From assembly GCA_020440645.1 (NCBI GenBank), contig JAGRNR010000009.1, positions 5,092 through 69,091 of the forward strand: a stretch of DNA of 64,000 bases, read 5' to 3'. The translations under genes were made by a program, and so were the position numbers. How positions within the stretch are numbered: the first letter of the stretch is position 1; each line of letters begins with the position of its first letter. The notes under the pieces were generated by a model. It was given only the letters and a program-made list of their open reading frames with translations, was not told the origin of the DNA and made no database searches. The stretch is from a bacterium (GTDB taxonomy: Bacteria; 4484-113; JAFGCY01). Of this stretch, positions 3,923-57,977 are shown in pieces.

Positions 3923-3944
3923 CACATCAGCATTATTACCGGAA

Positions 3945-4999: not shown

Positions 5000-5020
5000 G
5001 GCGGGCCGGTCTGGGTAGGC

Positions 5021-6244: not shown

Positions 6245-6247
6245 GCC

Positions 6248-21825: not shown

Positions 21826-21851
21826 CGGGGAAGCCCCGCGAGGAGTGATAC

Positions 21852-22784: not shown

Positions 22785-22785
22785 G

Positions 22786-23097: not shown

Positions 23098-23165
23098 GAC
23101 ACAAGTTCGAAAACTGCAGGTTATAGATACTGTTGAGTTGAACCCCCGAAGAGAGGGATTTTTAT

Positions 23166-37866: not shown

Positions 37867-38431
37867 CAAGCACCTCCCGCATCGCCGCGTCCGCGCGCTG
37901 TTTCAGCACGTTTTCAGCGTAGTTCTCATGTGAGGCAGCCCTGAACTCCCGCCTGAGCGGGAAGCCCTGCAGCTGCGGGTCGAGGATCAGGCCAATGAGG
38001 TTAGGGTTGCCGGCGAAGGGGATGCCGAAGAACTCGAAGATCTCGCGCTCCATCAGCTCCGTGGCCCGCCAGATCAGGCTCAGGCTGGGGTGCACGCTCT
38101 GCCCGGCATAGGCCGGCGCGGCCTCGCTGTCCTCCCCGCCCGGATCCGTTGCCGGGGGATTGCCCTCCAGCAGGGTGAATTTCCATTTCAGTGTGAGGCT
38201 GACGTCATGCCGCCTGCCGTGCCTGAGCGTCAGGTAGAGGTGGAAGTCCGGCCCGCCGAGGTGGTTGGCGGTCATGTTCAGCGCACGGATGAAGCCGATG
38301 TTCTTCAGCTGGCGGCAGACCAGCGGCAGCTGGCCGCTGTCCGTCAGGATCGCCCAGCCGCGGGCGGGGTCCAGCAGCAGCACATCACCGCAGTCCTCAC
38401 GGATCTGACCGGCAAGCTCATCAGGGAGCAC
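37850..38431 (-). CDS. nuoC: NuoC / 30-kDa subunit homologue
   Basis: SLSLIWRATELMEREIFEFFGIPFAGNPNL and GFPLRREF. GGAGG lies 5 nt before the GTG at 38431. The track uses the TTG at 38434. Confidence 0.8.
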   Translation of the reverse strand: MLPDELAGQIREDCGDVLLLDPARGWAILTDSGQLPLVCRQLKNIGFIRALNMTANHLGGPDFHLYLTLRHGRRHDVSLTLKWKFTLLEGNPPATDPGGEDSEAAPAYAGQSVHPSLSLIWRATELMEREIFEFFGIPFAGNPNLIGLILDPQLQGFPLRREFRAASHENYAENVLKQRADAAMREVLDDAQL

Positions 38432-41741: not shown

Positions 41742-42539
41742 CTATGAATACAGAAGATCCTCAAAATCCTCCGTCAGCTCTCCATGGAAAGTAGGGTAGT
41801 CAACCCTCCGGACATTGCGCCGCCATGGTCGCGGCCCCAGCTCGCTGCTTGTAAGCAGCTTGAGGTGAAGCGGATCGACATCTGTTGCCAGGCTGCATTC
41901 CGATCCGATGATCCCGTCTTTGTCCATGAAGTCCGTGTTTGGCCAGATATTGAAACTGCGACCGGATGACGTCCGGATCGAAGTCGGATTGAAGCCCATG
42001 GCAATCTCCATGGCATTGTAGCTTTCCCTGCGGATATCCAGCGGCAGGGCAAACCTTGACTGCTCAACATGCGCTGCATCCGACAATGCAGACTCTCCCT
42101 TTTGCCATTCGGGAAGGGGCATCGAGGCACTCAGGATGACAAAGGCCTTCTCTTGCCAGACGCCCGCATGATCCCTGACACAGCATGGGAACATCAGCCA
42201 CTTCATCCGCCGTTGAAACGCCGCGAATCCCACGCTGCCAATGTTCAGCAGCAGTTCCGCAAGCACTTTCGCCGGTTTCTCCATACCGGCATCCCAGGAC
42301 CTGGCCTTATCCAGGCAGCCTGCCGGAATTCTGAGCAGAAATCCCGATGCATGATCGAGATACCAGTCGGCATTGCATCTGGTGCAGATGTGCAGGATTC
42401 CGCGTTGCCAGCTTTCCCTGCGGATGATGAGCTTGTGCAGTTTGAAGTATGGGGTTTCCTCCCGGACACTTGCAGGAGGATCAGGATCCCAGGGGAGTGA
42501 TTCCCTGACCTGACAAGGGCAGCTGGCCTTGATACTCAT
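41742..42539 (-). CDS. Hypothetical Cys-rich protein (265 aa), lower GC, 19 nt downstream of nuoB
   Basis: Clean ORF MSIKASCPCQVRES...HICTRCNADWY..., with possible Zn-ribbon-like CPC/CxxC pairs. Codon third positions are visibly less GC-rich than in the neighbours. Confidence 0.6.
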   Translation of the reverse strand: MSIKASCPCQVRESLPWDPDPPASVREETPYFKLHKLIIRRESWQRGILHICTRCNADWYLDHASGFLLRIPAGCLDKARSWDAGMEKPAKVLAELLLNIGSVGFAAFQRRMKWLMFPCCVRDHAGVWQEKAFVILSASMPLPEWQKGESALSDAAHVEQSRFALPLDIRRESYNAMEIAMGFNPTSIRTSSGRSFNIWPNTDFMDKDGIIGSECSLATDVDPLHLKLLTSSELGPRPWRRNVRRVDYPTFHGELTEDFEDLLYS

Positions 42540-42558: not shown

Positions 42559-43011
42559 CTACCGCCACGCAAACCGCTCATCCAGCGCACCCGAGAGGAT
42601 GCGCTCCCGGAGCGCGATGATGCCGTCGATCAGCTGCTCGGGCCGCGGCGGGTCGCCCGGCACATAGATGTCCACTGGTACGATGCGGTCCACTCCCCCG
42701 TCCACCGCATAGCTGCCGTCGAAGGGCGCGCCGCTGATCGCCCCCGCGCCAAACGCCATCACGAAGGCCGGGTCGGCCATCGAGGCATGCAGCCGGCGGA
42801 TCACCGGGGCCATCTTGTTGTTGACGACGCCGGCCACGATCAAAAGGTCCACCTGGCGCGGGCTGGGGCGCATCACCTCAGAGCCGAAGCGCGCGATGTC
42901 ATAGCGCGGCGAGATCGCGCTGAACAGTTCCAGCGTGGCGTAGTCCAGTCCGAGCATCAGCGGCCACAGGGAATGGGCACTGGCCTCGCGGATGAGGTCC
43001 TTCAGACCCAT
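42559..43011 (-). CDS. nuoB: NuoB / PSST / hydrogenase-small-subunit-like protein with no cysteine (N2 cluster ligands all replaced)
   Basis: SLWPLMLGLDYATLELFS (canonical SLWPxxFGLACCAIEMM), SPRQVDLLIVAG, NKMAPVIRRL, FGAGAISGAPF (canonical MGACASSGG) and VDIYVPGDPPRPE (canonical VPGCPPRPE). There are zero Cys in 150 aa. Confidence 0.85.
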   Translation of the reverse strand: MGLKDLIREASAHSLWPLMLGLDYATLELFSAISPRYDIARFGSEVMRPSPRQVDLLIVAGVVNNKMAPVIRRLHASMADPAFVMAFGAGAISGAPFDGSYAVDGGVDRIVPVDIYVPGDPPRPEQLIDGIIALRERILSGALDERFAWR

Positions 43012-43453: not shown

Positions 43454-45553
43454 CTAGTTCACGGTGATGAACTTGTAGGCGATGCCCGTTTCCCCGAGCG
43501 AATCCGTCACCCGCACGGCAAGTGTGTAGAATCCGGGTGAGTTGAGGGTAGTGTTGATCGTGCTGTTCTCGAAGGTGGCTTCGAAGAAGCCGTCACCGTC
43601 CAGGTCATAGTCATAGATAACCGACAGCCCGTCCTCATCGTCCGAGCTCAGGCTGGCATCCAGCATTACCAGCACCGGTGCAAACCCAGTGTCCGGTGAT
43701 CCAGTCAGCACGGCGTTGGGCGGATGGTTCTCCAGACAGGTCAGCTTGTAGGCGCCCGGGCCGGTCTCGATGGCGGAACCGGGCACGAACACCTTCAGGT
43801 AGTAGCGCCCGGCGGCCGGCAGGCTGAAGTTGATGTATTCACGGTCCACGTTGTCAATCGATTCAATCAACGGAACGACCAGGTCTGACTCATGGTACAG
43901 AGCCAGTGAAAGGTCGACCGTCGCCGAACTGAAGTCCACCCAGAAGCTGGCGGTGGTGGCCCGGTCGGCATCGATCGCGTACCAGTCCTCGGTGTCGCTG
44001 CCGCCGACGCTAGCACTCCAGTCGCGGATATGCTTCGCGTAGTTGAGGAAACCGCCGAGGCTGTCCGCCTCCGTCTCGGCATTGTTGGGCTCAGTCTCCT
44101 GCGGGTCCACCCCGTTTGACACGATCACCTTCAGGCTGGCGGTGGCCTCCCGCTCACCACTGTCGGTGATGCGCACCGTTGGCGTGAATTCGCCGGGCAG
44201 CGTGTAGGTGATGTCACCACCGGGGTTCAGGCCGAGGTCATAGTCAAACGTGCCGTCACCCTCGAAGTCCCATTCGTACTTGACGATGTCATTGTCGGGG
44301 TCCACGAGGCCGCTGGTGTCGATGTAACGGATGATTCCGTTCTGCAGGCAGTAGTAGTCGATGCTCAGTTCAGCAGTGGGCGGGTTCTCACCGCTGATCG
44401 GCGTGATCGTGACATCCGTCGTGGCCGTGGCACTTTCCCCGAAGAAATCGATCACCATCACCCCGACGGTGAAGGTGCCGGCCTCGATGAATTCGCGGTA
44501 GGCGAAGGGGACCGGGGTCTGCAGCTCATGGAACCCGTCGTCGTCAAGGTCCCAGCGGTAATTGACGATGCCGCCATCCGGGTCCATGCTGTTGAAGGCG
44601 TCAAAGTTGATGGCCTGGGGCAGCGGACCGCCGTTCGGCAAGGCCACGATGTCCGCGATCGGTGGCAGGTTGCCCGGTTCACCGGTCACATTGATCGTGG
44701 CGGTGGCTTCGCCGGTGCCACCTTCGTTATCAACCACGCGCAGGGTGCAGGTGAAGGTGCCGACATGGTCGTAGTCGTGGCTGGGGGTCGGCCCGAGGTC
44801 ACCGGGTGTGAAGTAGATTGGGTCCTCGAATGACCAGTGGTACTCGGCGATCGTGCCATCCAGGTCGGAGCTGGCGGAGCCGTCAAACCCTGTGGTGAAG
44901 AAGTACTGGCCGCTGTCCTGGGCCACGGTGAAGCTGGCGGTCGGGGCGAAGTTGCCACCGAGCCGCACACGGGTCAGCTCGAAGCTGCCGCTGCCGGTCA
45001 GCAACACGCAGCAGTAGATCGCGTCGAAGTTCGAGAAATAGCCGTCCAGCGAGCCGAAGTCGAAGTGGTCATCGTCATTGCCAAGCTGCCATTTCCAGCG
45101 GCCGCTGCCGTAATCCGTGATGCCGACGTAGTACTCGCCGGAGTCCGGGCGCACGCCCCACTGCAGGTCGACCTGAGCCTCCCTTGCGAATCCCGGCAGG
45201 TGGTAACCGTAGATGCCCCAGCTCACATCCAGCTTCGGCGGGTTGGCGGCGGGGTCCCAGTCCGGGGCCATCAGCAGGCTGTCCCCGAACACGATCGCAT
45301 TCTCGCGGCTGCCGGGCGTGATGATCTCCGCACCCTTGCGGATGTAGTCCGCCGGTGTATCACTGAAGCTGCGCCCAACGGCGGGCAGCTCGGCCGGGGC
45401 TGGAAGCTGGGCAAGCAGGTCCTGCGGCAGTTCAACCGGACCGGACTGGCGCTCAGGCGTGGCAGCCTTTTCCTGCAGGTTGGCAGCGCCGGATGAACAG
45501 GCTGCCAGGCAGAATAGGCAGCCTGCCAGCAGAAGGGCAAATGAAGCACGCAT
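43454..45553 (-). CDS. Paralog 1: lipoprotein with a conserved unknown N-domain, PKD repeats, a PPC (pre-peptidase C-terminal) domain and a terminal PKD
   Basis: MRASFALLLAGCLFCLAACSSG. N-domain motifs VSWGIYGY and RWKWQLG...LRLGGNFAP. PKD examples YHWSFEDP..., YRWDLDDDGFHE and YEWDFEGDGTFD. PPC motif ETEPNNAETEADSLG...DWYAI...GRYYLKV. Confidence 0.85.
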   Translation of the reverse strand: MRASFALLLAGCLFCLAACSSGAANLQEKAATPERQSGPVELPQDLLAQLPAPAELPAVGRSFSDTPADYIRKGAEIITPGSRENAIVFGDSLLMAPDWDPAANPPKLDVSWGIYGYHLPGFAREAQVDLQWGVRPDSGEYYVGITDYGSGRWKWQLGNDDDHFDFGSLDGYFSNFDAIYCCVLLTGSGSFELTRVRLGGNFAPTASFTVAQDSGQYFFTTGFDGSASSDLDGTIAEYHWSFEDPIYFTPGDLGPTPSHDYDHVGTFTCTLRVVDNEGGTGEATATINVTGEPGNLPPIADIVALPNGGPLPQAINFDAFNSMDPDGGIVNYRWDLDDDGFHELQTPVPFAYREFIEAGTFTVGVMVIDFFGESATATTDVTITPISGENPPTAELSIDYYCLQNGIIRYIDTSGLVDPDNDIVKYEWDFEGDGTFDYDLGLNPGGDITYTLPGEFTPTVRITDSGEREATASLKVIVSNGVDPQETEPNNAETEADSLGGFLNYAKHIRDWSASVGGSDTEDWYAIDADRATTASFWVDFSSATVDLSLALYHESDLVVPLIESIDNVDREYINFSLPAAGRYYLKVFVPGSAIETGPGAYKLTCLENHPPNAVLTGSPDTGFAPVLVMLDASLSSDDEDGLSVIYDYDLDGDGFFEATFENSTINTTLNSPGFYTLAVRVTDSLGETGIAYKFITVN

Positions 45554-45608
45554 CTTTATTCCTCACTGCGCCCGGATACTCTCCAGCAAGCTGGAGGGGC
45601 AGCACAGA

Positions 45609-45614
45609 ATTCTA
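45609..45614 (-). promoter_or_regulatory. Putative -10 box (gTTAGAATTCTGTGC) for paralog 1
   Basis: It lies 55 nt upstream of the ATG at 45553. GAGGAATAAAG ATG supplies the SD. Confidence 0.4.
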
Positions 45615-45675
45615 ACTGAAAGAATCACCAAACTGAGCTTCGCGGCAAGCAGGTCCCAGCTACCCCTGGCACGGT

Positions 45676-47790
45676 TCAAATGGGTAAGGCAGTTACTATG
45701 ACGAAGTCTGTATCCGCGAGGCCCCACTCATCGATTACGCGCACGCTGACGACGATTGCACCGGGTACTGTGATCTGCGTGTCATAGGTGGGCTGGAACT
45801 GGCCGGTCACTTCAAAGATCCCGTCACCGTCGACATCAAACTGGTATTCAGTGATGTAGCCCATCTCAACTGTGCTGGCAGATGCATCCAGCGAAATGTC
45901 AAATGGAACCGACCCAACGAGCGGATCAGCGGACAAAGCGGCGTGCGGGCCGTCATAGTTGCGGCAGCGGAATGTGTAGTCACCGGGGCCCTTCGCCAGT
46001 GCTGAGGGATCTATGCTCACACGGATCAGGTACTGGCCGGCGGAGGGCAGCACGAACTTGAGGATTTCACTATCCAAGATGCCGTGTGCGCTGGCCAATG
46101 GGTTGTCGGTGTCGCCGGCGGAATACAGGTCCAGGCGCATGTCTATCTCGCTGCGGAGGAAATCCGCGACGAACGCCACTGGACCGCTGCGGTCGGATTC
46201 GAAGGAGTACCAGTCCGCGCTGTCGCCGCCGCCCTCATCCAGTGAGCCCTTCCAGTTGCAGATCCCCTTGGAGTAGTTCATGAAGCCGGTGAACTCCTCG
46301 GCCTCGCCCGGGGTACCGTTGGGTTCAGTTTCAGCCAAGCCGGAATTCGGCCCGATCCGCAGCGGTATGCTGGCAACGTCTGTCCGGCCGCCGCTGTCCG
46401 TCACGCGGAATGTCGCGTTGAAAGTCTGCCCTGTCTGGGCATAGGTCGCAACGAATTCCTCACCGGGGGCGAAAGAATAATCGAATATGCCATCACCCTC
46501 CAGGTCCGTCTCGAACGAGACGATGTCATTGTCGGGGTCGCTGCTCTCGCTCCAGTCTATCCTGAAGGCACCCGGTGAGTTGAAGCTGTAGTCGGACTTG
46601 ACGACGATGGTCGGCGGCTCAGTACCATCAACCGGGTCAATCACCACCGTGGTTGAGGCGGTGCTAAAGCTGCCCTGGTTGTCAATCGCCATCACGGACA
46701 CCTCATAGCTGCCGGGTACGGCGAAGAACCACTTCTGCACGGCACTGCCAAAAACCTCGAAATGCCCGTCTCCGTCGAAGTCGAAACGGTAGCCGGCTAT
46801 CGAGCCGTCCGTGTCGCTGCTGCCGCTGCAGTCGAAGTTGATCCACTGCGGGACCGGTCCACCGCTGGTGTCAGGCACGATCGAGGCAAGCGGTGCAGCG
46901 TTGCCATCCACCAGGGCGACCGAAATCGGGATGCTGAGCTCGGCGGTGGCTCCCTCATTGTCCGTCAGGCGCAGTGTGCAGGTGTACTCGCCCGCGTGGT
47001 CGTAAGTCCAGAAAACCACCGGGGCCGGGTACCGGAAATCCGTGTAGACCGGATCCTCCATTGACCATTCGTAGCCTGCAATGCTGCCGTCCGGATCGTG
47101 GCAACCCGAGGCGTCGAACTGGACCTCCAGAGAGCCTGTTCCACTGGTCTGGTTCGGGATCAGGCTGGCCACGGGCGGCAGGTTCTCCCCCAGACGCAGC
47201 CGGCTGAGATTGAAGTTGCCCTTGTCCGCGACCAGGATGGTGAAATAGATGTCGCCATTCCCGGAGAAGTAGCCGTCAAGGCTACCGAAATCAATGATGT
47301 CCTGATCCGTGCCCTGGAACCATTGCCAGCGATTGCTGCTGAAGTCGCTGACACCGATGTAGTGGCGCGCTCCGTCCGGCCTGGGGCCTTCCCACAGTAC
47401 CTGCAGTTCCGGCTGGCGCTGGAAATCAGTGATGTTGAAACCTTAAATCGCCCAGCTCAGCTCACGTGTCGGCGGCTCGGCCACGGGCTCGTAATCAGCA
47501 ACCATCACAAGCATGTTCCCGACAATGCTCGCATTGGCGAATGCATCAGGCTGATAAGTCTGATATCCATCCCGCAGGAAGTCCTCCGGGACATTGCTGG
47601 CGCTGCGCTGCTGCTGAGGCAGGCTGTCCAGTCCCGGCAGCCCGTCAGCCAGCGAGGGACTGAGCTGTACAGCCTCAGCCTGCGCGGAAACGGGCAGGTC
47701 AGCCGCCTGCTCCGGATGGGCCGGCTGGCTGCTGCATGAAGCCGCGAGCAGCAGGCAGCCTGCGCACGCGATGGCGAGAAGAGCTTTCAT
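45676..47790 (-). pseudogene. Paralog 2 of the PKD/PPC lipoprotein family, interrupted by a single in-frame TAA (47445..47443)
   Basis: Track ORFs 47443..47790 and 45676..47172 are in the same frame (2115 nt, 705 codons). My translation across the gap reads LSWAI*GFNITDFQ...YIGVSDFSSNRWQWFQG...LRLGENLPP, aligning with LSWGIYGFNIADYQ...YIGVSDYSSGHWQWRQG...LRLGGNFPP of paralog 3. The stop replaces a Tyr conserved in all three other paralogs. Confidence 0.8.
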
Positions 47791-47843
47791 CTTTATTCCT
47801 TGAACCTGCCTGGTTCCTTATGGCAGTGCAGGAGGCTGGGAAA

Positions 47844-47849
47844 ATTCTA
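47844..47849 (-). promoter_or_regulatory. Putative -10 box TAGAAT for paralog 2
   Basis: It lies 53 nt upstream of the ATG at 47790. AAGGAATAAAG ATG is nearly identical to the paralog 1 leader end. Confidence 0.4.
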
Positions 47850-47903
47850 CTCGATCAGTCTCAATCATTGACTTTCCCAGTAAAGCAATCCGCCAGCGAT
47901 CAT

Positions 47904-49997
47904 TCAGGGGGCGATGCCCGTCACTGTCACCGTGGCGATTGACTCCATTCCCAGCATGTCCTGTACCTTGACGCCGAGCTCCTGCGGTCCTTCCCAGCTG
48001 ACGGTGCCAGTACCGAGCCATCCGCCGGGCTCGCTCTCGAAGATCCCGTCGCCATCCATGTCAAAGAAGTAGATCAGGCCCTCCAGGTAACGGTCATAGC
48101 TGCGGCCCGCGTTGAGCACAACCTCGGTCCCCGTCTCCACTACCGTTGCGGAGGCCGTGACAAAAGCCACCGGCTTGGAGGGGTCCCAGAAGTCCAGCTT
48201 GTAGCCGCTGTCCTGCCCGGCCTCGCCTGCCTGCTTCGTGAACACGCGCAGGAAGTAGTCCCCCGGCGCCGTAATGAGAACGGACATAAACTCGTTGTCG
48301 GTATCCGAGTAGCTGAAGAACAGCGGGTTCACCAGGTCAAGAGGGCTGTACATCTCAATGTCCATGTCCATGAAACTGTGCGTGAAGATCAGGTTGAACC
48401 ACAGCTGGCCGTTGTGCGCGGCATGGATCACATACCAGTCCTCGGTATCCTCAGCGAACTTGAGCTGGCCGGGAAAGTCGCGCACCCGCACACACTCGTT
48501 GCCAAAACTGCCCAGGCTGATCGCCGTCTCCGGGCTGTCATTCGGTTCTACCTCCGGCTGGCCGGAGAATGGCGTGACCATCACTGGACAGGTTGCCGTG
48601 TCACTGCGTCCGCCGCTGTCAGTGACCCTCACGGCGACGTTGAACACGCCGCCATCCTGGGAATAGGTCACGTTATTCACGGGATCGAGCCCTGAATCAA
48701 CGTCGAACGTGCCGTCACCCTCGAAGTCCCATTCGTACTTCACGATGTCATTGTCAGGGTCATAGGATCCCTGTGCGGTGAAGTACCGTGCACCCGCAGT
48801 GTTGTCATACCAGTAGACGGCCTCCAGCTTTGCCACCGGAGGCTCCGTGCCCTCCACGGGCAGCACCTCGATCTGCATCGTGGCCGTGTCGACGGCACCG
48901 AACTCATCAATCACCATCACGCTGGGGTTGTAGGTGCCGGCTGCGATGTACAGAGCCTTGAACACCGGGCTGCCAAAAGTGAACTGCTCGAAGTACCCGT
49001 CCTCGTCAATGTCCCAGCGGAATGTCATGAAACCGTTCTCCGGATCCGTGCTGTCCTGTGCATTGAGCGTGACGGAAAGCGGAACCAGGCCGGATACCAC
49101 ATCAGATTCAGAGTAGATATCGGCCACAGGCGGGTCATTGCCAGGCACGGCGGTGACGCTGATCGGAATGACAAATTCCGTCATTCCGCCTTCGAGGTCA
49201 TGCGCCCTGCCTATGCAGTCGTACTCGCCGACATGGTCATACTCCCAGTACAGGAACGGACCGGCGGGCTCGAAGATCGGCCCACCCTCGGCGGACCATT
49301 CAAAGAAGGTCAGAGTGCCATCCGGATCGTAGCTGGCTGAGGCATCGATGTTGACCGTCAGCTTGCCCTGGCCGCTGTCGTTGTCAATCGTGTAGTCGAT
49401 CACGGGCGGGAAGTTGCCGCCGAGGCGCAGCCTGCTGAAGGTGAACTGGCCCTCCGTTGCCAGCAGCACCACCACATACAGGTCGCCGTTGGCAGAGAAA
49501 TAGTCAGCCAGCCCCGGGAAGTCCACGGTCCCGTCCGCCGTACCCTGGCGCCACTGCCAGTGTCCGCTGGAGTAATCACTGACCCCGATGTAGATGCCGG
49601 AGCTGGCGGGCGCAGTGCCATTCCACTTTGCCTGGATCTCCGTGCCGCGCTGGTAGTCTGCGATGTTGAAACCGTAGATCCCCCAGCTCAGTCCATGCAT
49701 CGGCGGGTCGCCCTGCGGATCATAGGTCGGGCTCATCGAGAGCTTGTCACCGGTCACCTCGGCATTCATCTTCGCCGATACCTTGTAGATGTCGGCTCCC
49801 GTGCGGATGCAGGCTTCCGGCGTATTGCTGGTACTGCGCTGCATGGCAGGCAGGGCAGAAATGGCCGGCAGCTGCGATTCAAGCTGCGGCAGGACAGCGT
49901 CGCCTGCCGGTTGGTTTACCTGGCCGCCACTTCCGCTGGAGCAGGCTGCCAGCAGCAGCATCGCTCCGGCCAGCAGGCCACTGAGCTGTCTGAACAT
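47904..49997 (-). CDS. Paralog 3: lipoprotein with the unknown N-domain, PKD repeats, PPC and a terminal PKD
   Basis: MFRQLSGLLAGAMLLLAACSSGSGG, LSWGIYGFNIADYQ, FRWDIDEDGYFE, YEWDFEGDGTFD, and EVEPNDSPETAISLG...DWYVIHA...GDYFLRV. Confidence 0.85.
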   Translation of the reverse strand: MFRQLSGLLAGAMLLLAACSSGSGGQVNQPAGDAVLPQLESQLPAISALPAMQRSTSNTPEACIRTGADIYKVSAKMNAEVTGDKLSMSPTYDPQGDPPMHGLSWGIYGFNIADYQRGTEIQAKWNGTAPASSGIYIGVSDYSSGHWQWRQGTADGTVDFPGLADYFSANGDLYVVVLLATEGQFTFSRLRLGGNFPPVIDYTIDNDSGQGKLTVNIDASASYDPDGTLTFFEWSAEGGPIFEPAGPFLYWEYDHVGEYDCIGRAHDLEGGMTEFVIPISVTAVPGNDPPVADIYSESDVVSGLVPLSVTLNAQDSTDPENGFMTFRWDIDEDGYFEQFTFGSPVFKALYIAAGTYNPSVMVIDEFGAVDTATMQIEVLPVEGTEPPVAKLEAVYWYDNTAGARYFTAQGSYDPDNDIVKYEWDFEGDGTFDVDSGLDPVNNVTYSQDGGVFNVAVRVTDSGGRSDTATCPVMVTPFSGQPEVEPNDSPETAISLGSFGNECVRVRDFPGQLKFAEDTEDWYVIHAAHNGQLWFNLIFTHSFMDMDIEMYSPLDLVNPLFFSYSDTDNEFMSVLITAPGDYFLRVFTKQAGEAGQDSGYKLDFWDPSKPVAFVTASATVVETGTEVVLNAGRSYDRYLEGLIYFFDMDGDGIFESEPGGWLGTGTVSWEGPQELGVKVQDMLGMESIATVTVTGIAP

Positions 49998-50036
49998 GCG
50001 CTTGTCCTCGCACTTTACCGGGTTCCGTCCGCACAG

Positions 50037-50042
50037 ATTCTA
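50037..50042 (-). promoter_or_regulatory. Putative -10 box (gTTAGAATCTGTGC) for paralog 3
   Basis: It lies 39 nt upstream of the ATG at 49997. The extended motif is shared with the paralog 1 promoter. Confidence 0.4.
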
Positions 50043-50091
50043 ACCCAGGACAAACCAGGACAAGCAGTTGCATCGCAGTCCGGCCTGCAGC

Positions 50092-52914
50092 CTAGGCTTC
50101 CGGCAGGACCTCCATCATGTAGTCCTGCTCGAGCTTCGGGTTCGAGCTGGCCCACACGTAGGCATTGATGTAGTAGGTACCGGGCGCGGTGAAGTTGTAC
50201 GTGATCGACTCGTTGTCAGTGGTGCTTGTCGATGAGCCGATCTGGGACGTGCCGTCGGTGTCATACAGCTTCAGGTCGAGGTCGGACAGCGCATCGGTGA
50301 AGTACATGTTGATCACATAGCTGCCCGGTGTCACGATCTGGATCTTCATCCAGTCCGACTCGTCGCCATCCAGCGGCCCGTCCGGCCCGAGGTTGCCGAA
50401 CCAGCCGGTGAAGTCCGTGCCGGGGAACATGTTGCCGGTCAGGTAGTCGTCATTGTCCTCAACCTCGTCGTAGGTCAGGCTGACCGAGATATCCACCGAG
50501 TCGGTGCCACTGGCACCGTACTGGTCCGTCACGCGCACCATCGCGCTGACTGTGCCGGCCGAGTAGTAGGTATGGGTCACGAAGGGGTCGGTGGTGGTCT
50601 CGTCCCAGGTGCCGTCTCCGTTGTAGTCCCACTCGAACTTCGTCAGGTCATGCCCGTCCGGGTCGGTGCTGCCGCTGGCATCGAAGTCCACCACAAGCGG
50701 GGCCTCGCCACTCAGCGGGCTGGCGGTCAGGACCACATTCGGGTTGCCGTTGATCGAGTTGACGTTTACGGTCTTCGTCACCTTGCCACCCTGGTCGTCG
50801 GTCACGCGCACCTTGACCGCCACCGTGCCGGAAACCGTCATGTCGCCCATGAAGACTGAGGTCGTGCCGGTGTCCTGCTCGAAGCTGCCGTTGCCATCGA
50901 CGTCCCACTCGTACTTGGTGATCGTGCCGTCCGGGTCGTAGCTGCCCGTCGCATCCAGCGTGACCGGGAAGGGCACGTTGCCACTGAGCGGGCTGACGTT
51001 GAAGGTGACCACCGGCAGGCGGTTCACGCTGGCATCGAAGGTGTAGTCCGCCGGACCGCGGTCAGTCGCGCTGGCGTAGATGTAGATCCGGATGAAGTAG
51101 GTGCCGGTCTTGTCAGCCGGGATCGAGTAGCTGATCGACTCCGTGTTGCCCGTGCCGGTGGAGGATGCCACCGAGGTGCTCAGGTCGGATTCATGGAACA
51201 GGCGGATGTCAATGTCAGCCTCGGCATCGATGAAGGCCAGGTTCAGCTGCACCTCCAGTGGCTCGGGTGCCGCGAACACAAGCCAGTCCTCCTCGCTGCC
51301 GTCATAGCCGCCCACTCCGAGGTTGCCACGCCAGCCCTGGATGCCCTTCGCATAGCCGCCATAGCCCGGCAGCTGGTCAGCGGAAGCGCTGTCGTCATTC
51401 GCCTCGGTCTCGTGGTAGTTGCCGGCGCTGTCAACGATGAGCGTGGCCTGGAAGGTGTCATTCAGGCCGCCGCTGTCGGTCACGCGCAGGACCGGGGTGT
51501 AGGTGCCGATGCCGGGGTAGGTATGCTGGGCAGTGGCCGTGCCGCCGTTGTCAAGCTCGTAGGTTCCGTCACCGTCCCAGTCGAACTCGTACTTGACGAT
51601 GTCGTCGTCCGGGTCAGTAGAGACGGAGGCGTCGAAGTTGAACACGCCGTCATCGGTGCGGAAGCCGTAGTCCACCAGCATCAGTGCGTCCGGCGGGCTC
51701 TGCACCCCGACCTCCATCACCTCGATCAGCAGGTTGTCAGTCGCCGTGCTGCCGAGGTCGTCAGTCACGCGAAGCTTGATGTCGTAGCTGCCTGGATCGT
51801 TGAACGTTGTCGATGTGCTGTCGACCACGCCGGTGTCCTTCTCGAAGCTGCCGTTGCCGTCGAGGTCCCATTCGTACTTGACGATCGTGCCGTCCGGGTC
51901 GGAGCTGCCTGTGCCGTTGAACAGCACGGTGAGCGGTGCGGAACCGGTGGTCTTGTTGGCGCCGAGCACCGCCGTCGGCGGGTCGTTGTCAATGACAGGG
52001 GTGACGCTGACAACGGTCTCCGCGATGCGCTGGGCGCCCTCATTGTCAGTCAGCTGCACGCGCACGAGGAAGTTGCCTGTCTGGTTGTAGACATGCTGCG
52101 TGGTCTGGTCGGTACCGGGGGCACCGAAGCCGTCACCGGTGAAGTCCCATTCGAAGCTTGTGATGTCGCCGTCGATGTCATAGCTCGCACTGGCGTCGAA
52201 GTTGACGGTCAGCGGCACGGTGCCGCTGGTCGTGTCAGCCTGCAGGTCCGCCACCGGTGCGATGTTGTCACCGAGGCGCAGCTGGCCGAGGCTGTAGCTG
52301 CCCTGCCCGGTCAGCACCACGGCGATGTACAGGGTGTCCGTCGGGGAGAAGAAGTCCGCCAGGTTGCCGAAGTCCATCGCCGTGCCGGCGGCCGGTCCCT
52401 GGAACCACTGCCAGCGGCCGGCATCGAAGTTGCTGATGCCGATGAAGTAGTTGCCGGCGGGCGGCGTGGTGCCATCCCACCACAGCTGCAGGGTGCCGGG
52501 GCTGACATAGCCGGTCAGGCCGAAGCCGTAGACCGCCCAGGCCAGGTCGCTGGTGGGCGGGTTGGCGGTGCGCACCCAGTCCGGCGTCATCACGAGGAAA
52601 TCCCCGTCCACACTGGAGAAGGACTTCATTTCCGGCGTGATCAGCTGCGAACCAAAGCGGATGAAGTCCTCCGGCGCATTGCTCGAGCTGCGCTCGACGG
52701 CCGGCAGGTCTGAAAGGTCCGGCACCCCGTCCATGGCCACGGTGATCTCCGGCGCGGGCTTGGCATGTTCGATGCTGTATTCGAGGACCGGCTGTTCCTC
52801 ATTGAACTCGAACTTCTCGCGCTTGAAGAGTACCTGGTCTCCGCCCGACCCGCCTCCGCAGGAGGTGAGCAGGATTGAGACGGCGATGGCCCAGACATAT
52901 AGTGCATTTCTCAT
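50092..52914 (-). CDS. Paralog 4 (940 aa): lipoprotein with the unknown N-domain, PKD repeats, PPC, two further PKD and a second PPC
   Basis: MRNALYVWAIAVSILLTSCGGGSGG, LAWAVYGFGLTGY, FEWDFTGDGF, YEWDLDGNGSFE, YEFDWDGDGTYE, and two PPC blocks (ETEANDDSASADQL... and EVEDNDDYLTGN...). Confidence 0.85.
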   Translation of the reverse strand: MRNALYVWAIAVSILLTSCGGGSGGDQVLFKREKFEFNEEQPVLEYSIEHAKPAPEITVAMDGVPDLSDLPAVERSSSNAPEDFIRFGSQLITPEMKSFSSVDGDFLVMTPDWVRTANPPTSDLAWAVYGFGLTGYVSPGTLQLWWDGTTPPAGNYFIGISNFDAGRWQWFQGPAAGTAMDFGNLADFFSPTDTLYIAVVLTGQGSYSLGQLRLGDNIAPVADLQADTTSGTVPLTVNFDASASYDIDGDITSFEWDFTGDGFGAPGTDQTTQHVYNQTGNFLVRVQLTDNEGAQRIAETVVSVTPVIDNDPPTAVLGANKTTGSAPLTVLFNGTGSSDPDGTIVKYEWDLDGNGSFEKDTGVVDSTSTTFNDPGSYDIKLRVTDDLGSTATDNLLIEVMEVGVQSPPDALMLVDYGFRTDDGVFNFDASVSTDPDDDIVKYEFDWDGDGTYELDNGGTATAQHTYPGIGTYTPVLRVTDSGGLNDTFQATLIVDSAGNYHETEANDDSASADQLPGYGGYAKGIQGWRGNLGVGGYDGSEEDWLVFAAPEPLEVQLNLAFIDAEADIDIRLFHESDLSTSVASSTGTGNTESISYSIPADKTGTYFIRIYIYASATDRGPADYTFDASVNRLPVVTFNVSPLSGNVPFPVTLDATGSYDPDGTITKYEWDVDGNGSFEQDTGTTSVFMGDMTVSGTVAVKVRVTDDQGGKVTKTVNVNSINGNPNVVLTASPLSGEAPLVVDFDASGSTDPDGHDLTKFEWDYNGDGTWDETTTDPFVTHTYYSAGTVSAMVRVTDQYGASGTDSVDISVSLTYDEVEDNDDYLTGNMFPGTDFTGWFGNLGPDGPLDGDESDWMKIQIVTPGSYVINMYFTDALSDLDLKLYDTDGTSQIGSSTSTTDNESITYNFTAPGTYYINAYVWASSNPKLEQDYMMEVLPEA

Positions 52915-52959
52915 GAGGAATTCCTCTGGTTTCAGCGTGGAATACGGGTAAACATGCTG

Positions 52960-52965
52960 ATTTTA
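52960..52965 (-). promoter_or_regulatory. Putative -10 box TAAAAT for paralog 4
   Basis: It lies 45 nt upstream of the ATG at 52914, in the AT-rich divergent region shared with the S8 protease gene. AGAGGAA SD lies 6 nt before the ATG. Confidence 0.3.
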
Positions 52966-53103
52966 CCGGATTTTATGGTGACACATGTGAAAGATTAATT
53001 GTGTACCGCCGGTCGGTTTCATCTCAATTTGAAGTACCCTTGAAATTGTGGAAGAATTGTAAGAGGGCAGGCAAGCATGCCTGTCCGGCTGGCTGGACAA
53101 GCA

Positions 53104-56100
53104 ATGAAACGAAGCATCTTCACTCCTATGATCCTGTTTGTGCTGCTGATTGGCGCATGCGCCTCACAGCAGCAGCTCAGTGCTGAACCGGGTGCAGGCG
53201 GCACTACGGTGTTCGATAACGACGCAGGCAGCCCGGGCCTCGTGGATGACCCCGGCATGCTGGCCCTGCCCGGTGAGCCGGGCAACCTGGCCGGACTGCG
53301 CAATGTCGCGGACCCGGAGGCTGAGCTGGAACTGCCGCGGCGCACGGCGCGGGCCGGGCAGGACTTTGCCGCCAACCGCCTGGTGGTGGTCTGGGAGAAC
53401 CAGCCGGACCCGGCGGTGCAGCAGCAGTACATGGGCGGCGGCCCGCAGGCGGACCTCAGGCGGGCGACGGACAACCATCCGCTGGTGGACCACCCCTTCT
53501 ACCGCCGTGTCAGCCACAACTTCGCCCAGCACTACGGCCTCAGTGAGTTCGGCCGGGTGTTCTACAAGGATGTCAACTTCACTGCATATGAAGTGCCCGG
53601 CCTGACGGATGTCAGCCAGCTGGACGCGCTGATGCAGAAGCTGCTCAGCGAGAACCGGGGCCTCGTGCGCGAGGTGAACTACGACTTCTACGTGGACATC
53701 AGCCAGACGGTGGAAACTGAGCCGGTGCCGCTTGATCAGGAGCGCATCCAGCAGGTCATCCAGTCCTCTCCGGCTGCACCACAGCGCATGCGTGAGCAGA
53801 ACCGCAGCACGAGCGCTGCCCCGAATGACCCGATGCACCTGAACCTGAGCGGCAGCGACGGCGGCACCTGGGCAAACTGGCGCATCGGTGCGGTCGACGG
53901 CCAGGCCTGGGACAGCGGGGTGGGCAGCCATGACGTGGTGGTGGCGGTGGTGGACACCGGTGTGCGCTACACGCATGAGGACCTCGCTGACAACGCGATC
54001 GAGCCCGCCGCGGAATTCCCGTACAACGAACCGGGCATCCTGACGGACGTGATCAACAAGGACAACGACCCGTTTGACGACCACGGCCACGGCACCTACT
54101 GCTCCGGCATCGTCGGCGCCGTTGGCAACAACGGGCTCGGGCTGGCCGGTGCCAACCAGCAGGTCAGCATCCTGCCGGTCAAGGTGCTCAGCGGCGGCGG
54201 CAGCGGCAGCGAGACCCAGGTGGCGGAAGGCATGCTGCTGGCGGACTACCTCGGGGCGGACATCATCAGCATGTCGCTCGGCGGGGATTTCCCGGACCGC
54301 ATCATGCAGCTGGCCGCCAAGCAGTGCGACAGTGACGGAGTGCTGGTGGTGGTGGCCGCCGGCAACAACAACTGGGGCGGGCTGTTCTACCCGGCCTACT
54401 ACCCGGAATGCCTCGGGGTCGGTGCGACCACACTTGTCAACGACTCCAATGACCAGGACTTCAGCCAGGTGGACGGCGAGATCCCGACGGCTGACCGGTA
54501 CGACGCGCGCGCCAACTTCTCCAACTACGGCAGCTGGGTGGACATCGCTGCCCCCGGCGTGCAGGTGCGCTCGACATCAAACGGCTCGGACACTTCATAC
54601 GGCGCAAGTGGTGCCGGCACCAGCTTCGCCTGTCCCTACGTGGCCGGCTGCGCAGCGCTGCTGTGGGCGCATATGGGGCCGGACAAAAGCAACCATGAGG
54701 TGCGCGGCATGCTGCAGGGCAGTGCCACCGTGATGGACCACCTCAACAACGGTGCCAACCCGCGCGGCTTCATTGACAACGACACCAACGGCACGGTGCG
54801 CTTCGTGAACGTCTGGGAGGCGATCAAGCTGTACGATGCCGGGCCCTATGAAGCGCCGGCTGTCAGCTGGACCAGCCCGCTGGAGGGAGCGAGCGTCAGC
54901 GGCCTGACCGACCTGCAGCTGGAGATCACGGGCGGCAGCGGCAACATCCTAAAGGTGTCCTTTGAGACCCCGACGCGGCACCTCGGCACGGTGACCGAGG
55001 AGACTGGCGGCTTCTGGCAACTGAGCTGGGACAGCGCGTTTGAGTTCAACGGCGGGCAGACCATCACGGCGACGGTGACGGACGACGTCGGGCACATCAT
55101 CAGCCTGCCGCTGCATGTCAACTGTGACAATGCGCACATCGTGCCGGAGTGGCAGGAGGGCTTCGACGGCCTGGCGGATGACACGCTGCCGGCGGGCTGG
55201 TCCGTGCTGGATGGCAACGCCGGTACCAACAACACCATCTGGGGCGCTGACAACTCAGATGGTGGCGATGCCTCCCCTTCGATGCACTCCAGCGGCAGCA
55301 CGGGGAACTACGCCCCCAACAGCAATGACTGGCTGTATGCGCCGGTGATCGACCTGACAGGCGTTGCCAGCGCCTCGCTCGAGTTCAACTACCTGCACCG
55401 GATGGCCAATGACGGCGGTTTCCTGTTCATCACGGCGGATGACGAGACCTACGCCGGCGACGGATTCTTCGGCGGTGGCAACCCGGACTGGGACAGCTAC
55501 AGCTTTGACCTGACGCCGTTTTGCGGCGCGGAAGTGCGCATCTTCTGGGTGATCGACTGCAATGGCGGCAACCAGGCCGGCGGGATGTGGATTGACGACG
55601 TGCACATCACCGTGCCGGAGGGCACGCCGCCGACCGTCAGCATAGACAGCCCGCTGGCCAATGCCAGCGTGGACGGCATCGTGGACGTGCAGCTGACCCT
55701 GAGCGATGATACGGTGGCGGTCGAACTGATCGGCCTGCCGGTCAGTGCCCCGCCGCTGCTGTTTGACAGCATCCCGGACAACGACCCCGAGAACCCGACG
55801 AAGACATTCACGGCCACATGGGACAGCCGCCAGACCGGCACCGGAAATGTGCTGCTGCGCGCGCGGGCCTATGATGATGAAAGTGACAACGGCGGGCTGG
55901 ATGACCTGGCGGCCGAGGACAGCGTGGTGCTGGACGTGACAAACCCCGTGGCCGGCCCCGGCTGGCTGGAGGACTTCGAGGATGTGGTGGACCTCGGCGG
56001 GACTGACAACGGCCAGCCGGATGGTGCGTGGTTCCGTATCGGCGCTGACCCGGTGCGCTGGCGTACGGGCCTGCAGGCCCCCTGGCGCGGCCTGGGCCAC

Positions 56101-56775
56101 GCCTACTTCGGCCCTGATGGCGGCGGAGACTATGGCAACGATGAACTGGGCTGGCTGTACAGTCCGCTGATTGATCTGGCTGCTGCGGCCCGCCCGCGGA
56201 TCCGCCTGCAGCACAGCCTCGACGTGGACGCTGCCAATGCCGACCGTGCAGTGGTCTACATGGTGCGTTATAACGGCAGTGAGGTGCTGGAAGCCAACCT
56301 GTTTGAACAGCGCAATGACACTGCTGGTTACCAGCCGCTGCTGTTCAACCTTGACGGGATGTCCCAGCAGCCCTTCCGCCTGCTGTTCCTGTTCGACTCC
56401 GATGGCAACAGCCAGGCCGGCAGCGGCTGGAGCCTGGATGACATAGAGGTAATGGATGCTGATCCCTTCCTGCTAGGCCTGACTCAGCCGCGCGGCTATC
56501 CCGGCCAGACGGTGGTGCTCAATGGCAGCAACTTTGGGGTGCTGCAGGAGGACAGCTTCGTCAGCTTCCGCAGTGAGGGTGGCGGCAGCACGCTTGCAAC
56601 AGTCAGCTCATGGAGCAATACGGAAATCAGCGTGGTCGTGCCGCCGGATGCTGATAGTGGCGATGTGTTCGTGACCGTGCTGGGCTTTGAAAGCAATGCG
56701 CGCCACTTCAGCCGGCTGCTGGACCCGACTGAGCTGACCGGCATCGGACAGTTCAGCCTGTCTGACGGCATCTGA
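53104..56775 (+). CDS. Subtilisin-family (S8) serine protease lipoprotein with Ig-like, two choice-of-anchor-J/MAM-like domains and an IPT/TIG domain (1223 aa)
   Basis: MKRSIFTPMILFVLLIGACAS. Catalytic triad contexts VAVVDTGV (Asp), HGHGTYCSGIVGA (His) and GTSFACPYVAGCAALL (Ser). C-terminal DWLYAPVIDL and GWLYSPLIDL blocks, then the TIG-like GQTVVLNGSNFG...GDVFVTV. Confidence 0.9.
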   Translation: MKRSIFTPMILFVLLIGACASQQQLSAEPGAGGTTVFDNDAGSPGLVDDPGMLALPGEPGNLAGLRNVADPEAELELPRRTARAGQDFAANRLVVVWENQPDPAVQQQYMGGGPQADLRRATDNHPLVDHPFYRRVSHNFAQHYGLSEFGRVFYKDVNFTAYEVPGLTDVSQLDALMQKLLSENRGLVREVNYDFYVDISQTVETEPVPLDQERIQQVIQSSPAAPQRMREQNRSTSAAPNDPMHLNLSGSDGGTWANWRIGAVDGQAWDSGVGSHDVVVAVVDTGVRYTHEDLADNAIEPAAEFPYNEPGILTDVINKDNDPFDDHGHGTYCSGIVGAVGNNGLGLAGANQQVSILPVKVLSGGGSGSETQVAEGMLLADYLGADIISMSLGGDFPDRIMQLAAKQCDSDGVLVVVAAGNNNWGGLFYPAYYPECLGVGATTLVNDSNDQDFSQVDGEIPTADRYDARANFSNYGSWVDIAAPGVQVRSTSNGSDTSYGASGAGTSFACPYVAGCAALLWAHMGPDKSNHEVRGMLQGSATVMDHLNNGANPRGFIDNDTNGTVRFVNVWEAIKLYDAGPYEAPAVSWTSPLEGASVSGLTDLQLEITGGSGNILKVSFETPTRHLGTVTEETGGFWQLSWDSAFEFNGGQTITATVTDDVGHIISLPLHVNCDNAHIVPEWQEGFDGLADDTLPAGWSVLDGNAGTNNTIWGADNSDGGDASPSMHSSGSTGNYAPNSNDWLYAPVIDLTGVASASLEFNYLHRMANDGGFLFITADDETYAGDGFFGGGNPDWDSYSFDLTPFCGAEVRIFWVIDCNGGNQAGGMWIDDVHITVPEGTPPTVSIDSPLANASVDGIVDVQLTLSDDTVAVELIGLPVSAPPLLFDSIPDNDPENPTKTFTATWDSRQTGTGNVLLRARAYDDESDNGGLDDLAAEDSVVLDVTNPVAGPGWLEDFEDVVDLGGTDNGQPDGAWFRIGADPVRWRTGLQAPWRGLGHAYFGPDGGGDYGNDELGWLYSPLIDLAAAARPRIRLQHSLDVDAANADRAVVYMVRYNGSEVLEANLFEQRNDTAGYQPLLFNLDGMSQQPFRLLFLFDSDGNSQAGSGWSLDDIEVMDADPFLLGLTQPRGYPGQTVVLNGSNFGVLQEDSFVSFRSEGGGSTLATVSSWSNTEISVVVPPDADSGDVFVTVLGFESNARHFSRLLDPTELTGIGQFSLSDGI

Positions 56776-57900
56776 TCACAGGCTGTCCGGGCCGAATGGG
56801 ACTACAGCATCGCCGTCAATCCAGTGCAGGCCATGCTCGCCGGTGCCCACCCAGGTCCGGCCCGCCTTGTCACGCTGGACCGTCATGGTGAATGCGCCAT
56901 TGCAGATCGGATACTTGTGCACCTTGCCGGCGGCGTACTGCCAGACTCCATCAGTGCCGCAGGCCAGCCACATCGTTCCGTCCGGATCCTGTGTGACTGA
57001 GGCAAAGTAACTGAAGTTGTCAGCATTGTCAGTGCCTGCATCCGGCAGGCCCGGCAGCTTGCTGTAGGCAAGCTGGCTGAATCCAGCTTCCAGCCTGGCT
57101 TCAGCGGAGAACTCAAAGCGCTGCCGCGTGTTACAGATCCAGAAGGCGCCATCCCGGTCCTCGAAGATGGAGCGCAGGCCGAAGTTTCCGCCAGCCGGGG
57201 TGTTCACCAGTTCGTCCTCGTACAGCCAGCTGAACTCCCGGCCATCCCAGCGGCAGGCTCCAAGCGAAGCCGTCCCGAACCAGACATTGCCAGCTCGGTC
57301 CCTGTAAATGGTGTAGACACCGGCCGGGTCATAGCCGAGGTTCGGGTTGCGCCTGCGGTAATCCTCCAGTCCGGGAGCCGGCGGCAGATGCAGGCTTATC
57401 AAGCTGTCGCCATCAAACAGGCAGGGATTGTTCCTCGCAGGGTCCAGGATCAGCCAGACCTGCTTGGGCCCTGGTTTGAGGGTGCCCCAGTCCTGGCCGT
57501 AGTCAACAGGTTCAAGCAGCGAGAAGTTCTGTCCATCGAAGCGTGAAAGGCCCCTAGTGGTGGTGATCAGCAGGCCGCCGGAGCCGTCGCCAGTGATGCC
57601 CCGCACATTGTTGCCAGCCAGGCCGTCGGCTTCCGTGTAGTTCGTGATTTCCTGCCCGGCGATCCGGAACAGGCCGCTTTCCGTGCAGCCCAGCCAGTAA
57701 ACGCCATCCGGGTCCTGGTGGATGCACCAGGCGCCCGATCCCACTTCATTGACAATCCGGCCCGGCTGGGAAACGCCTTCGCTGGCAACAGCCGGACTGG
57801 CCAGCGGGCGCTGAGCCCGGGCCAGCAGGTAAACGGATAAGACCAGCAGCAGTGGCAGGACGAGGCCAGCAATGCGCCAGGCTTGGGGTTTATTGGACAT
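56776..57900 (-). CDS. Membrane-anchored beta-propeller protein (two-component-regulator-propeller-like repeats)
   Basis: MSNKPQAWRIAGLVLPLLLVLSVYLLARA, with repeats such as GVYWLGCTESGLFRI, GLLITTTRGLSRFDG, NVWFGTASLGACRWDG and TMWLACGTDGVWQY. The track ORF (to 58209) is over-extended. TACAAT lies 8 nt before the ATG at 57900. Confidence 0.75.
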   Translation of the reverse strand: MSNKPQAWRIAGLVLPLLLVLSVYLLARAQRPLASPAVASEGVSQPGRIVNEVGSGAWCIHQDPDGVYWLGCTESGLFRIAGQEITNYTEADGLAGNNVRGITGDGSGGLLITTTRGLSRFDGQNFSLLEPVDYGQDWGTLKPGPKQVWLILDPARNNPCLFDGDSLISLHLPPAPGLEDYRRRNPNLGYDPAGVYTIYRDRAGNVWFGTASLGACRWDGREFSWLYEDELVNTPAGGNFGLRSIFEDRDGAFWICNTRQRFEFSAEARLEAGFSQLAYSKLPGLPDAGTDNADNFSYFASVTQDPDGTMWLACGTDGVWQYAAGKVHKYPICNGAFTMTVQRDKAGRTWVGTGEHGLHWIDGDAVVPFGPDSL

Positions 57901-57908
57901 CACAGCGG

Positions 57909-57914
57909 ATTGTA
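57909..57914 (-). promoter_or_regulatory. -10 box TACAAT, 8 nt upstream of the ATG at 57900
   Basis: The minus strand reads TACAAT ccgctgtg ATG. Confidence 0.45.
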
Positions 57915-57965
57915 TGCGCTGCTGGGTGATCAAGGTCTGGATTGGCATCCCAGTCTGGGCTGAAG

Positions 57966-57971
57966 TAGAAT
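57966..57971 (+). promoter_or_regulatory. -10 box TAGAAT, 6 nt upstream of the ATG at 57978 (leaderless configuration)
   Basis: The + strand reads TAGAAT ctatgc ATG. Confidence 0.5.
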
Positions 57972-57977
57972 CTATGC

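Follow-up and report, generated by a model that had tools for sequence, protein, structure and literature searches.

Organization of the array

The 64-kb stretch of contig JAGRNR010000009.1 analyzed here, referred to as the window, belongs to an uncultured UBP7-lineage bacterium from activated sludge. It carries a minus-strand tandem run of four paralogous genes, p1 to p4, between positions 43454 and 52914. Each gene encodes a putative lipoprotein in which a domain of about 165 residues common to all four paralogs (the N-domain) precedes PKD and PPC modules. The N-domain defines a family that is large, unannotated and of a known fold class, and that is carried by a familiar kind of protein. 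A first-pass annotation made by a model from the sequence had already described four consecutive minus-strand genes, each with a lipoprotein signal and a shared module. Both the gene run (coordinates in Table 1) and the signals are confirmed, and the module is colinear with the conserved blocks quoted at that time; its length, however, is about 165 and not about 180 residues.

In all four paralogs a signal peptide leads to a lipobox, i.e. LAAC in p1 and p3, AASC in p2 and LTSC in p4, with the cysteine at residue 19. The pattern used for bacterial lipoproteins (Lgt/LspA substrates) was [LVI][ASTVI][GAS]C. Cys19 does not vary in an alignment of 20 sequences comprising orthologs, paralogs and six more distant family members. 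From the lipobox we infer that p1 to p4 are lipid-anchored, and it is also the only feature that suggests their exposure at the cell surface. Downstream of the N-domain, PKD_4 scores of 128, 108.8, 80.7 and 185.4 bits were obtained for p1 to p4, respectively (Pfam cut-off 27; PF18911 / PF00801), with four PKD_4 stretches in p1. PPC (PF04151) exceeds its Pfam gathering threshold of 25.9 bits in p1 (28.3 bits, E 3.4e-6) and in p4 (43.2 bits, E 7.4e-11, two stretches), stays under it in p2 (18.6 bits, E 3.5e-3) and has no Pfam match in p3. The assignment of both modules to every gene in the first-pass annotation is thus correct for PKD throughout, but for PPC it holds by Pfam in p1 and p4 only. 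The corresponding regions of p2 and p3 are colinear with the PPC of p1 and p4 in the alignment. A full-length AlphaFold model of p3 (pLDDT, the predicted local distance difference test, 79) has the appearance of beads on a string, in which residues 1–38 (signal and tether) are disordered and lead into the N-domain, behind which follow three PKD-like sandwiches, a PPC-like one at about residues 485–605 and a terminal PKD. No catalytic Pfam domain was detected in p1 to p4.

The four genes are colinear in alignment, with 34–41% identity at the protein level and 51–53% at the DNA level. The best 40-codon window between paralogs reaches 72% DNA identity, and windowed DNA identity gave no sign of recent large gene conversion among them. 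The only suspicious stretch, in the PKD3 motif KYEWDFEGDGTF, is identical over 35 nt in p1 and p3, and no exact match between any paralogs is longer. Four relatives, L001 to L004, were retrieved by scanning a genome collection with p4. L001 is the closed 4.11-Mb metagenome-assembled genome (MAG) CP060262.1 ('HK-STAS-UBP7_A-1'), with 95.4% DNA identity to the window over 17.9 kb; the other three, L002, L003 (assembly JAGRNT010000005.1) and L004, come from UBP7-type MAGs at a greater distance. A saline activated-sludge series has yielded UBP7 MAGs (PMC8495973).

Table 1. Features of the p1–p4 locus, in window coordinates (all lie on the minus strand except the S8 gene)
Feature	Position	Strand	Description
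p1	43454–45553	minus	699 aa; lipobox (Cys19), N-domain, three PKD, PPC, PKD (open reading frame, Pfam)
p2	45676–47790	minus	704 codons, pseudogene; architecture as in p1 (open reading frame, DNA reading)
p3	47904–49997	minus	697 aa; lipobox, N-domain, three PKD, PPC-like beta-sandwich missed by Pfam, PKD
p4	50092–52914	minus	940 aa; lipobox, N-domain, three PKD, PPC, two PKD, PPC
N-domain of p1	44936–45430	minus	residues 42–206
N-domain of p2	47167–47664	minus	residues 43–208, broken by TAA
N-domain of p3	49398–49892	minus	residues 36–200; sequence used for the AlphaFold2 model
N-domain of p4	52249–52746	minus	residues 57–222
In-frame TAA in p2	47443–47445	minus	codon 116; TAC (Tyr) in relatives
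p2 cassette tract	45700–47800	minus	94–100% identity to L003, flanks about 66–85%; L004 gapped (sliding window)
TAGAAT, –10-like	45609–45614	minus	55 nt upstream of p1 ATG; within conserved island TTAGAATTCT.TGCTGCCC
TAGAAT, –10-like	47844–47849	minus	53 nt upstream of p2 ATG
TAGAAT, –10-like	50037–50042	minus	39 nt upstream of p3 ATG; island CCTGGGTTAGAATCTGTGCG unchanged in L003 and L004, flanks diverged
Two TAAAAT hexamers	52960–52975	minus	upstream of p4; proximal one within conserved island CCGGTAAAATCAG
S8 (subtilase) lipoprotein	53077–56775	plus	Big_7 and TIG domains; syntenic in L001–L004

The N-domain family

Within the window, a six-frame search with a hidden Markov model (HMM) found the N-domain in these four genes only, with E-values from 1e-31 to 1e-85 and the next match at about 1. 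The first-pass annotation could not assign the module, and neither could the databases. A 2025 copy of Pfam has no accepted match for it, either with the full proteins at E≤0.01 or with six isolated N-domains at E≤10, so that residues of about 40–205 of p1 to p4 are without any Pfam match. NCBIfam gave no match, and sequence profiles of 5 and of 56 sequences found nothing significant in the PDB. Tla3_N, HTH_CHD1 and DUF7015 appeared as single-sequence Pfam matches below the cut-off that differ between the paralogs, and were rejected as the identity of the domain. An identity as C-type lectin was also discarded: the match with Mincle (E 0.12 over YIGVSD..WQW, a WIGL..WxW-like block) moved to an E-value of about 1 with a deeper profile and is contradicted by the fold, with neither a significant sequence match to a C-type lectin-like domain nor its alpha/beta fold being found.

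An exhaustive HMMER search with the paralog profile against 1.84 billion cluster representatives detected 842 proteins when the cut-off was E≤1e-3 and 284 when it was E≤1e-10, i.e. the family amounts to 842 or more clusters defined at 50% identity. A word-indexed homolog search returned no match for the N-domain of p3 and a single one for the 56-sequence profile, which reflects its limited sensitivity and not an absence of homologs. Among the 150 best HMMER matches, the N-domain starts at residues 20–60 in 116, and a strict lipobox expression is satisfied upstream of it in 110. The others are mostly N-terminally truncated fragments or have an evident hydrophobic stretch followed by a cysteine. 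A hydrophobic stretch ending in Cys thus precedes the domain in essentially all of these 150 members that have a complete N-terminus.

What follows the N-domain is variable. In Pfam scans of 62 distant members, the downstream part (the payload) contains PKD (PKD_4) in 49 proteins, an SBBP propeller in 10, a PQQ-type propeller (PQQ_2) in 5, PPC in 4, CarboxypepD_reg in 3 and a papain-like Peptidase_C1 in 2, and no Pfam family covers the N-domain itself. Because of its start position just after the cysteine and of the varied domains downstream, the N-domain is a constant, anchor-adjoining module ahead of interchangeable payloads. The records of these members are named 'PKD domain-containing protein', 'PKD repeat protein' or 'hypothetical', and once 'BamB' by mistaken transfer. 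No description of the family was found in the literature on UBP7 or on this combination of domains.

Predicted fold of the N-domain

The N-domain of p3 was modeled with AlphaFold2 using the 56-sequence alignment (A4), with high confidence (pLDDT 93.8; predicted template modeling score, pTM, 0.89). The model is a sandwich of about nine strands, on which a short N-terminal helical segment is packed, and it has the features of a beta-jelly roll. The fold-resemblance scores were 9.3 for domain III of Cry11Aa, 9.0 for the accessory domain of GH115 (glycoside hydrolase family 115), 8.9 and 8.7 for CBM6 (carbohydrate-binding module family 6) and about 8 for CBM35 and CBM36; F5/8-type C and phage tail jelly rolls were also among the fold matches. 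Foldseek gave no match at E≤1e-3, the best having an E-value of 1.4e-3, and TM-scores did not exceed 0.47. According to the model, the N-domain belongs to the galactose-binding-like jelly-roll fold class. Its membership of a CBM family is indicated neither by Pfam, with six N-domains at E≤10, nor by the PDB profiles. The invariant or near-invariant residues are three tryptophans, one leucine and one glycine.

A nonsense allele of p2

The in-frame TAA of p2 takes the place of the tyrosine in the LSW[GA]IYGF block, LSWAIYGF becoming LSWAI*GF. The first-pass annotation had counted p2 as an intact gene of about 704 residues, although the stop at codon 116 is located inside LSWGIYGF, one of the very blocks that it quoted. 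The open reading frame (ORF) finder splits the gene into 47443–47790 (115 aa) and 45676–47172 (498 aa), and the fragments are present in public records as MCB1186404.1 and MCB1186403.1. Intact 704-aa orthologs are P0001 and the p2 genes of L001 and L003, the codon being TAC in the last two. At least five samples or runs independently yielded the TAA allele (SAMN08389165, SAMN08389166, SAMN08389167, ERZ27309058 and SRR6747763), and it is therefore a genuine nonsense allele of the lineage and not a sequencing error. Outside the stop codon p2 is 97.4% identical to its ortholog in L001, showing that the inactivation is recent.

That the array would be an assembly duplication, and the stop codon an error, has a negligible probability. 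The repetitive domain content is all that speaks for it. The 51–53% DNA identity of the paralogs and the longest exact match of 35 nt exclude assembly duplication; the same four-gene order is found in the closed genome CP060262.1 and in L003, and the TAA allele in at least five separate assemblies.

Evolution and copy turnover

The p1 protein is 98.1% identical to its L001 ortholog. Four intact copies are present in L001 and in L003, three in L004, which is devoid of p2, and L002 is a short contig. Against L003 and L004, the ratio of nonsynonymous to synonymous substitution rates (dN/dS, Nei-Gojobori) is 0.04–0.6 in every domain, which means that purifying selection acts on every domain of the array. 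In comparison with the same two relatives p4 is the fastest-evolving copy, and it is also the earliest branch in the N-domain tree. In this tree p2 and p3 are sisters, and the whole UBP7 set is monophyletic relative to the arrays of other genomes.

Between the window and L003, the synonymous divergence (dS) of p2 is 0.03–0.07, versus mostly about 0.45–1.0 for p1, p3 and p4, falling to 0.23–0.32 in the PKD4 segments that end p1 and p3. The closeness of p2 between the window and L003 is mirrored by the N-domain tree. This could mean either that p2 underwent recent homologous recombination between co-occurring lineages or that the L003 contig is chimeric across the cassette. The array shows copy turnover, p2 being a nonsense allele here, missing from one relative and almost unchanged between lineages that have otherwise diverged. 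In L002, the N-domain of the gene that follows the p4 ortholog (4125–4994, plus strand) groups with the p1 clade and not with p3, and the contig ends there; this points to an array with fewer genes or another gene order.

The head-to-head pair formed by p4 and the neighboring S8 protease gene (50092–56775) evolves faster than its surroundings, because its DNA identity to L003 and L004 is 73–76%, versus 87–90% for the ankyrin gene region (57898–60000) and 89–95% for the NuoB region; the flanks are at 86–90% in L003.

Upstream elements

A Shine-Dalgarno sequence, GAGGA or AAGGA, is located 6–7 nt from the ATG of each of the four genes, and hexamers of the TAGAAT/TAAAAT type are present farther upstream (Table 1), as the first-pass annotation had noted together with the near-identical leader end of p1 and p2, in which GGAATAAAGATG is common to both. 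By footprinting against L003 and L004, the spacers have diverged and the islands at the hexamers and at the Shine-Dalgarno sequences are kept; this invariance in diverged relatives supports separate promoters. In the three spacers between paralogs, where TAGAAT is located, a generic sigma-70 scan detected no promoter. It gave three promoter-like sites, in the p4–S8 divergent spacer and at the start of the S8 ORF, one of which (53027–52998, minus strand) is upstream of p4 and does not use the TAAAAT hexamers. No intergenic terminator was found in the scan. Each paralog gene thus appears, by footprinting only, to have a promoter of its own.

Arrays in other genomes and the S8 protease neighbor

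Arrays of N-domain genes are also found in more distant genomes. Four members lie within 11 kb in L005 (66.8% GC), one of them broken, four are in tandem in L007 (GCA_020849855.1), three in tandem plus two weaker ones in L008, and at least two are found in L009. The broken member of L005 (3717–6287, plus strand) lies between two intact members and is in pieces in three frames (3717–4496, 4370–4687 and 4554–6284); either its frameshifts mark a pseudogene or the assembly is wrong at this point. Since the members cluster mostly by genome in the N-domain tree, tandem expansion is recurrent and independent. The first-pass annotation had proposed a lineage-specific expanded family. The expansion at this locus is indeed lineage-specific, since its four copies form one clade relative to the arrays of other genomes, but the N-domain is not peculiar to it, with at least 842 clusters and several payloads.

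The S8 gene is divergent from p4, head-to-head over a 162-bp spacer and not back-to-back as previously stated. Its product, of 1232 aa from the first ATG and 1223 aa, the length given by the first-pass annotation, when counted from Met10, has a lipobox (LIGAC) and the catalytic motifs DTG/HGT/GTS, and is apparently an active subtilase. It is without PKD or PPC according to Pfam. Conservation of this neighbor is restricted to the four close relatives L001–L004; no secreted protease is located beside the array in L005, L007, L008, L009 or the P0066 contig. In two of these distant contexts an M42 aminopeptidase is nearby, among housekeeping genes. No conserved secreted-peptidase neighborhood was found across the N-domain family, and the suggestion that the family is protease-associated is weak.

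Other genes of the window

A 150-aa homolog of NuoB/Nqo6 (42559–43011, minus strand; E 5.9e-38 to Thermus thermophilus Nqo6, 2fug_6) is located beyond p1. This protein retains none of the four cysteines that ligate Fe-S cluster N2, with GLACCAIE changed to GLDYATLE, GACASSG to GAGAISG and PGCPPRPE to PGDPPRPE. The gene has 89–95% nucleotide identity in L003 and L004 and is upstream of a minus-strand complex-I-like cluster comprising NuoD-like (36715–37869), NuoJ-like (32439–33485) and antiporter-like (28055–31918) genes. The adjoining ORF at 41742–42539 (minus strand, 265 aa) has no Pfam match. It is 99–100% identical to L001 and has random-level identity of 38–51% to L003 and L004, and would therefore be a strain-group-specific insertion or replacement. 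Two large ankyrin-repeat proteins are encoded at 57978–60308 (plus strand, 776 aa) and 1628–4021 (minus strand, 797 aa); the N-terminus of the former resembles a lipobox (LLLAGCS), and lipoproteins with ankyrin repeats are uncommon in bacteria. The organism is probably flagellated, since genes for MotA, for MotB with its OmpA-like peptidoglycan-binding domain and for a FliL-like protein are found at 21025–24071 (plus strand).

Possible role of the array

We tentatively propose, giving it somewhat less than an even chance, that p1 to p4 are tandemly duplicated, non-catalytic, lipid-anchored envelope proteins in which the jelly roll serves as a base and the PKD and PPC modules as distal binder. 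From the N-terminus, each protein would comprise a signal peptide and its Cys19, some 20–40 residues of flexible tether, the jelly roll of about 165 aa, three PKD, a PPC of the collagen-binding-domain type and a terminal PKD, with p4 ending instead in two PKD and a second PPC. The jelly roll would be the common base module adjoining the membrane, where it may contact an envelope glycan or a partner protein, and would present at the cell surface the PKD stalk and the modules that bind at its far end (PPC in these paralogs, propellers or a papain-like peptidase in other members). The four paralogs could be polymer-binding, adhesion or substrate-capture proteins of diversified specificity, which may work alongside the neighboring S8 lipoprotein protease. 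The jelly roll is likelier to be a base or docking module than a specificity binder because it adjoins the anchor and stands ahead of unrelated payloads. A stronger form of this idea seems to us quite unlikely: the jelly roll would be the recognition or docking module of a lineage-specific system for surface-lipoprotein display, each payload having to carry it to be flipped to, or held at, the surface. The logic would be that of the C-terminal domain of the type IX secretion system (T9SS), of S-layer homology (SLH) domains and of the Bacteroidota lipoprotein export signal, to which the N-domain is unrelated.

Several points weigh against the proposal of an anchored base with a distal binder. 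The role of the base module is read from domain order and payload variability alone, and orientation toward the surface or the periplasm is not readable from sequence. No conserved ligand site is evident from residue conservation in the N-domain, and the conserved Trp, Gly and Leu look like fold determinants. In the HWQWRQ strand the residues that alternate with the tryptophans are polar, and these tryptophans therefore probably face the core. The fold resemblance is generic, at 5–17% identity with a best Foldseek E-value of 1.4e-3 and TM-scores of at most 0.47, and does not establish glycan binding. Finally, the adjacency of a protease is limited to one narrow clade.

The likeness to CBMs raises a different possibility, i.e. 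that the N-domain is a genuine CBM for environmental polysaccharides and the paralogs are surface glycan-binding, nutrient-capture lipoproteins like SusE/F or the surface glycan-binding proteins (SGBPs), with PKD and PPC as spacers or additional sites. We consider this doubtful, albeit a serious candidate. No CBM family matches the sequence even at E≤10, the domain adjoins the lipid anchor instead of being distal, its invariant residues look like core residues, and no SusC/SusD-like or glycoside-hydrolase gene was seen among the annotated neighbors. Moreover, the unrelated payloads, such as peptidases and propellers, behind the same domain fit a shared structural role better than a shared ligand. 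The paralogs might also be dedicated accessory subunits of the adjacent S8 protease, supplying PKD and PPC in trans as exchangeable specificity subunits of a split system that resembles a collagenase or a subtilase. Secreted peptidases typically carry such modules as C-terminal accessories, according to the Pfam description of PF04151 and, for ColG and ColH, to PMC4356367, and the S8 protein itself is without them. Furthermore, the head-to-head arrangement is kept in L001, L002, L003 and L004, and p4 and the S8 gene both evolve faster than their flanks (73–76% versus 86–90% DNA identity to L003). However, synteny among close relatives only has little weight, five other contexts of the family are without an adjoining secreted protease, and each paralog appears to have its own promoter, which leaves this explanation unlikely. 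Very unlikely, in our opinion, is that the paralogs face the periplasm and have a structural role or help to maintain the envelope. Surface exposure is not fixed by a lipobox alone; but extended runs of PKD combined with PPC, propellers or peptidases are characteristic of extracellular proteins, and fast paralog divergence, presence/absence polymorphism and pseudogenization are found more typically in environment-exposed proteins.

Whatever the role of its products, the locus illustrates the fast turnover of a putative surface-protein array, with tandem expansions that arose independently, a cassette found in some co-occurring lineages, missing from others and possibly exchanged between them, and a nonsense allele in several samples. 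This turnover points to proteins facing the environment, i.e. substrates, phages or predators. The N-domain family is hidden in public records under labels such as 'PKD domain-containing protein', and envelope proteins of UBP7 and of its uncultured relatives, from wastewater and elsewhere, would be better annotated with a Pfam-style model derived from alignment A4. The finding exposes a useful annotation gap and does not reveal a new mechanism or a new kind of system.

Comparison with known systems

CBM6, CBM35 and CBM36 are galactose-binding-like beta-jelly rolls, which the N-domain resembles at the level of the predicted fold, with 5–17% identity. It differs from them by an extra conserved N-terminal segment, LPxPxxL...RxxSY...D....G, packed on the fold, and in that it follows a lipobox instead of being joined to a glycoside hydrolase. 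The likeness to domain III of Bacillus thuringiensis Cry toxins is also at the fold level only (8–12% identity); the N-domain proteins are without the pore-forming domains I and II, and their context is wholly different. The Bacteroidota SusE, SusF and SGBPs are lipid-anchored, non-catalytic, multi-domain beta-sandwich proteins with Ig-like and CBM-like modules, and the paralogs are predicted to be alike in this respect. The CBM-like domains of the former are distal to the anchor, whereas the jelly roll of the paralogs is proximal. The paralogs also belong to a different phylum, have no sequence relationship with these proteins and have no SusC/SusD-type genes among their annotated neighbors.

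In the clostridial collagenases ColG and ColH, PKD and a PPC-type collagen-binding domain (CBD) constitute the substrate-targeting part, as described in PMC4356367, and the ColG CBD (1nqd) is a weak entry in the Foldseek list for the N-domain. Unlike these enzymes, the paralogs carry no catalytic module in the same polypeptide. The collagenases are secreted, whereas the paralogs are predicted to be N-terminally lipid-anchored and possess an extra N-terminal jelly roll; the order of their domains, three PKD, PPC and PKD, is also different. What p1 to p4 have in common with the accessory segments of ColG and ColH (PKD-like s2 and PPC-type s3) is the predicted combination of PKD and PPC-superfamily modules, which would act as a non-catalytic part for substrate targeting.

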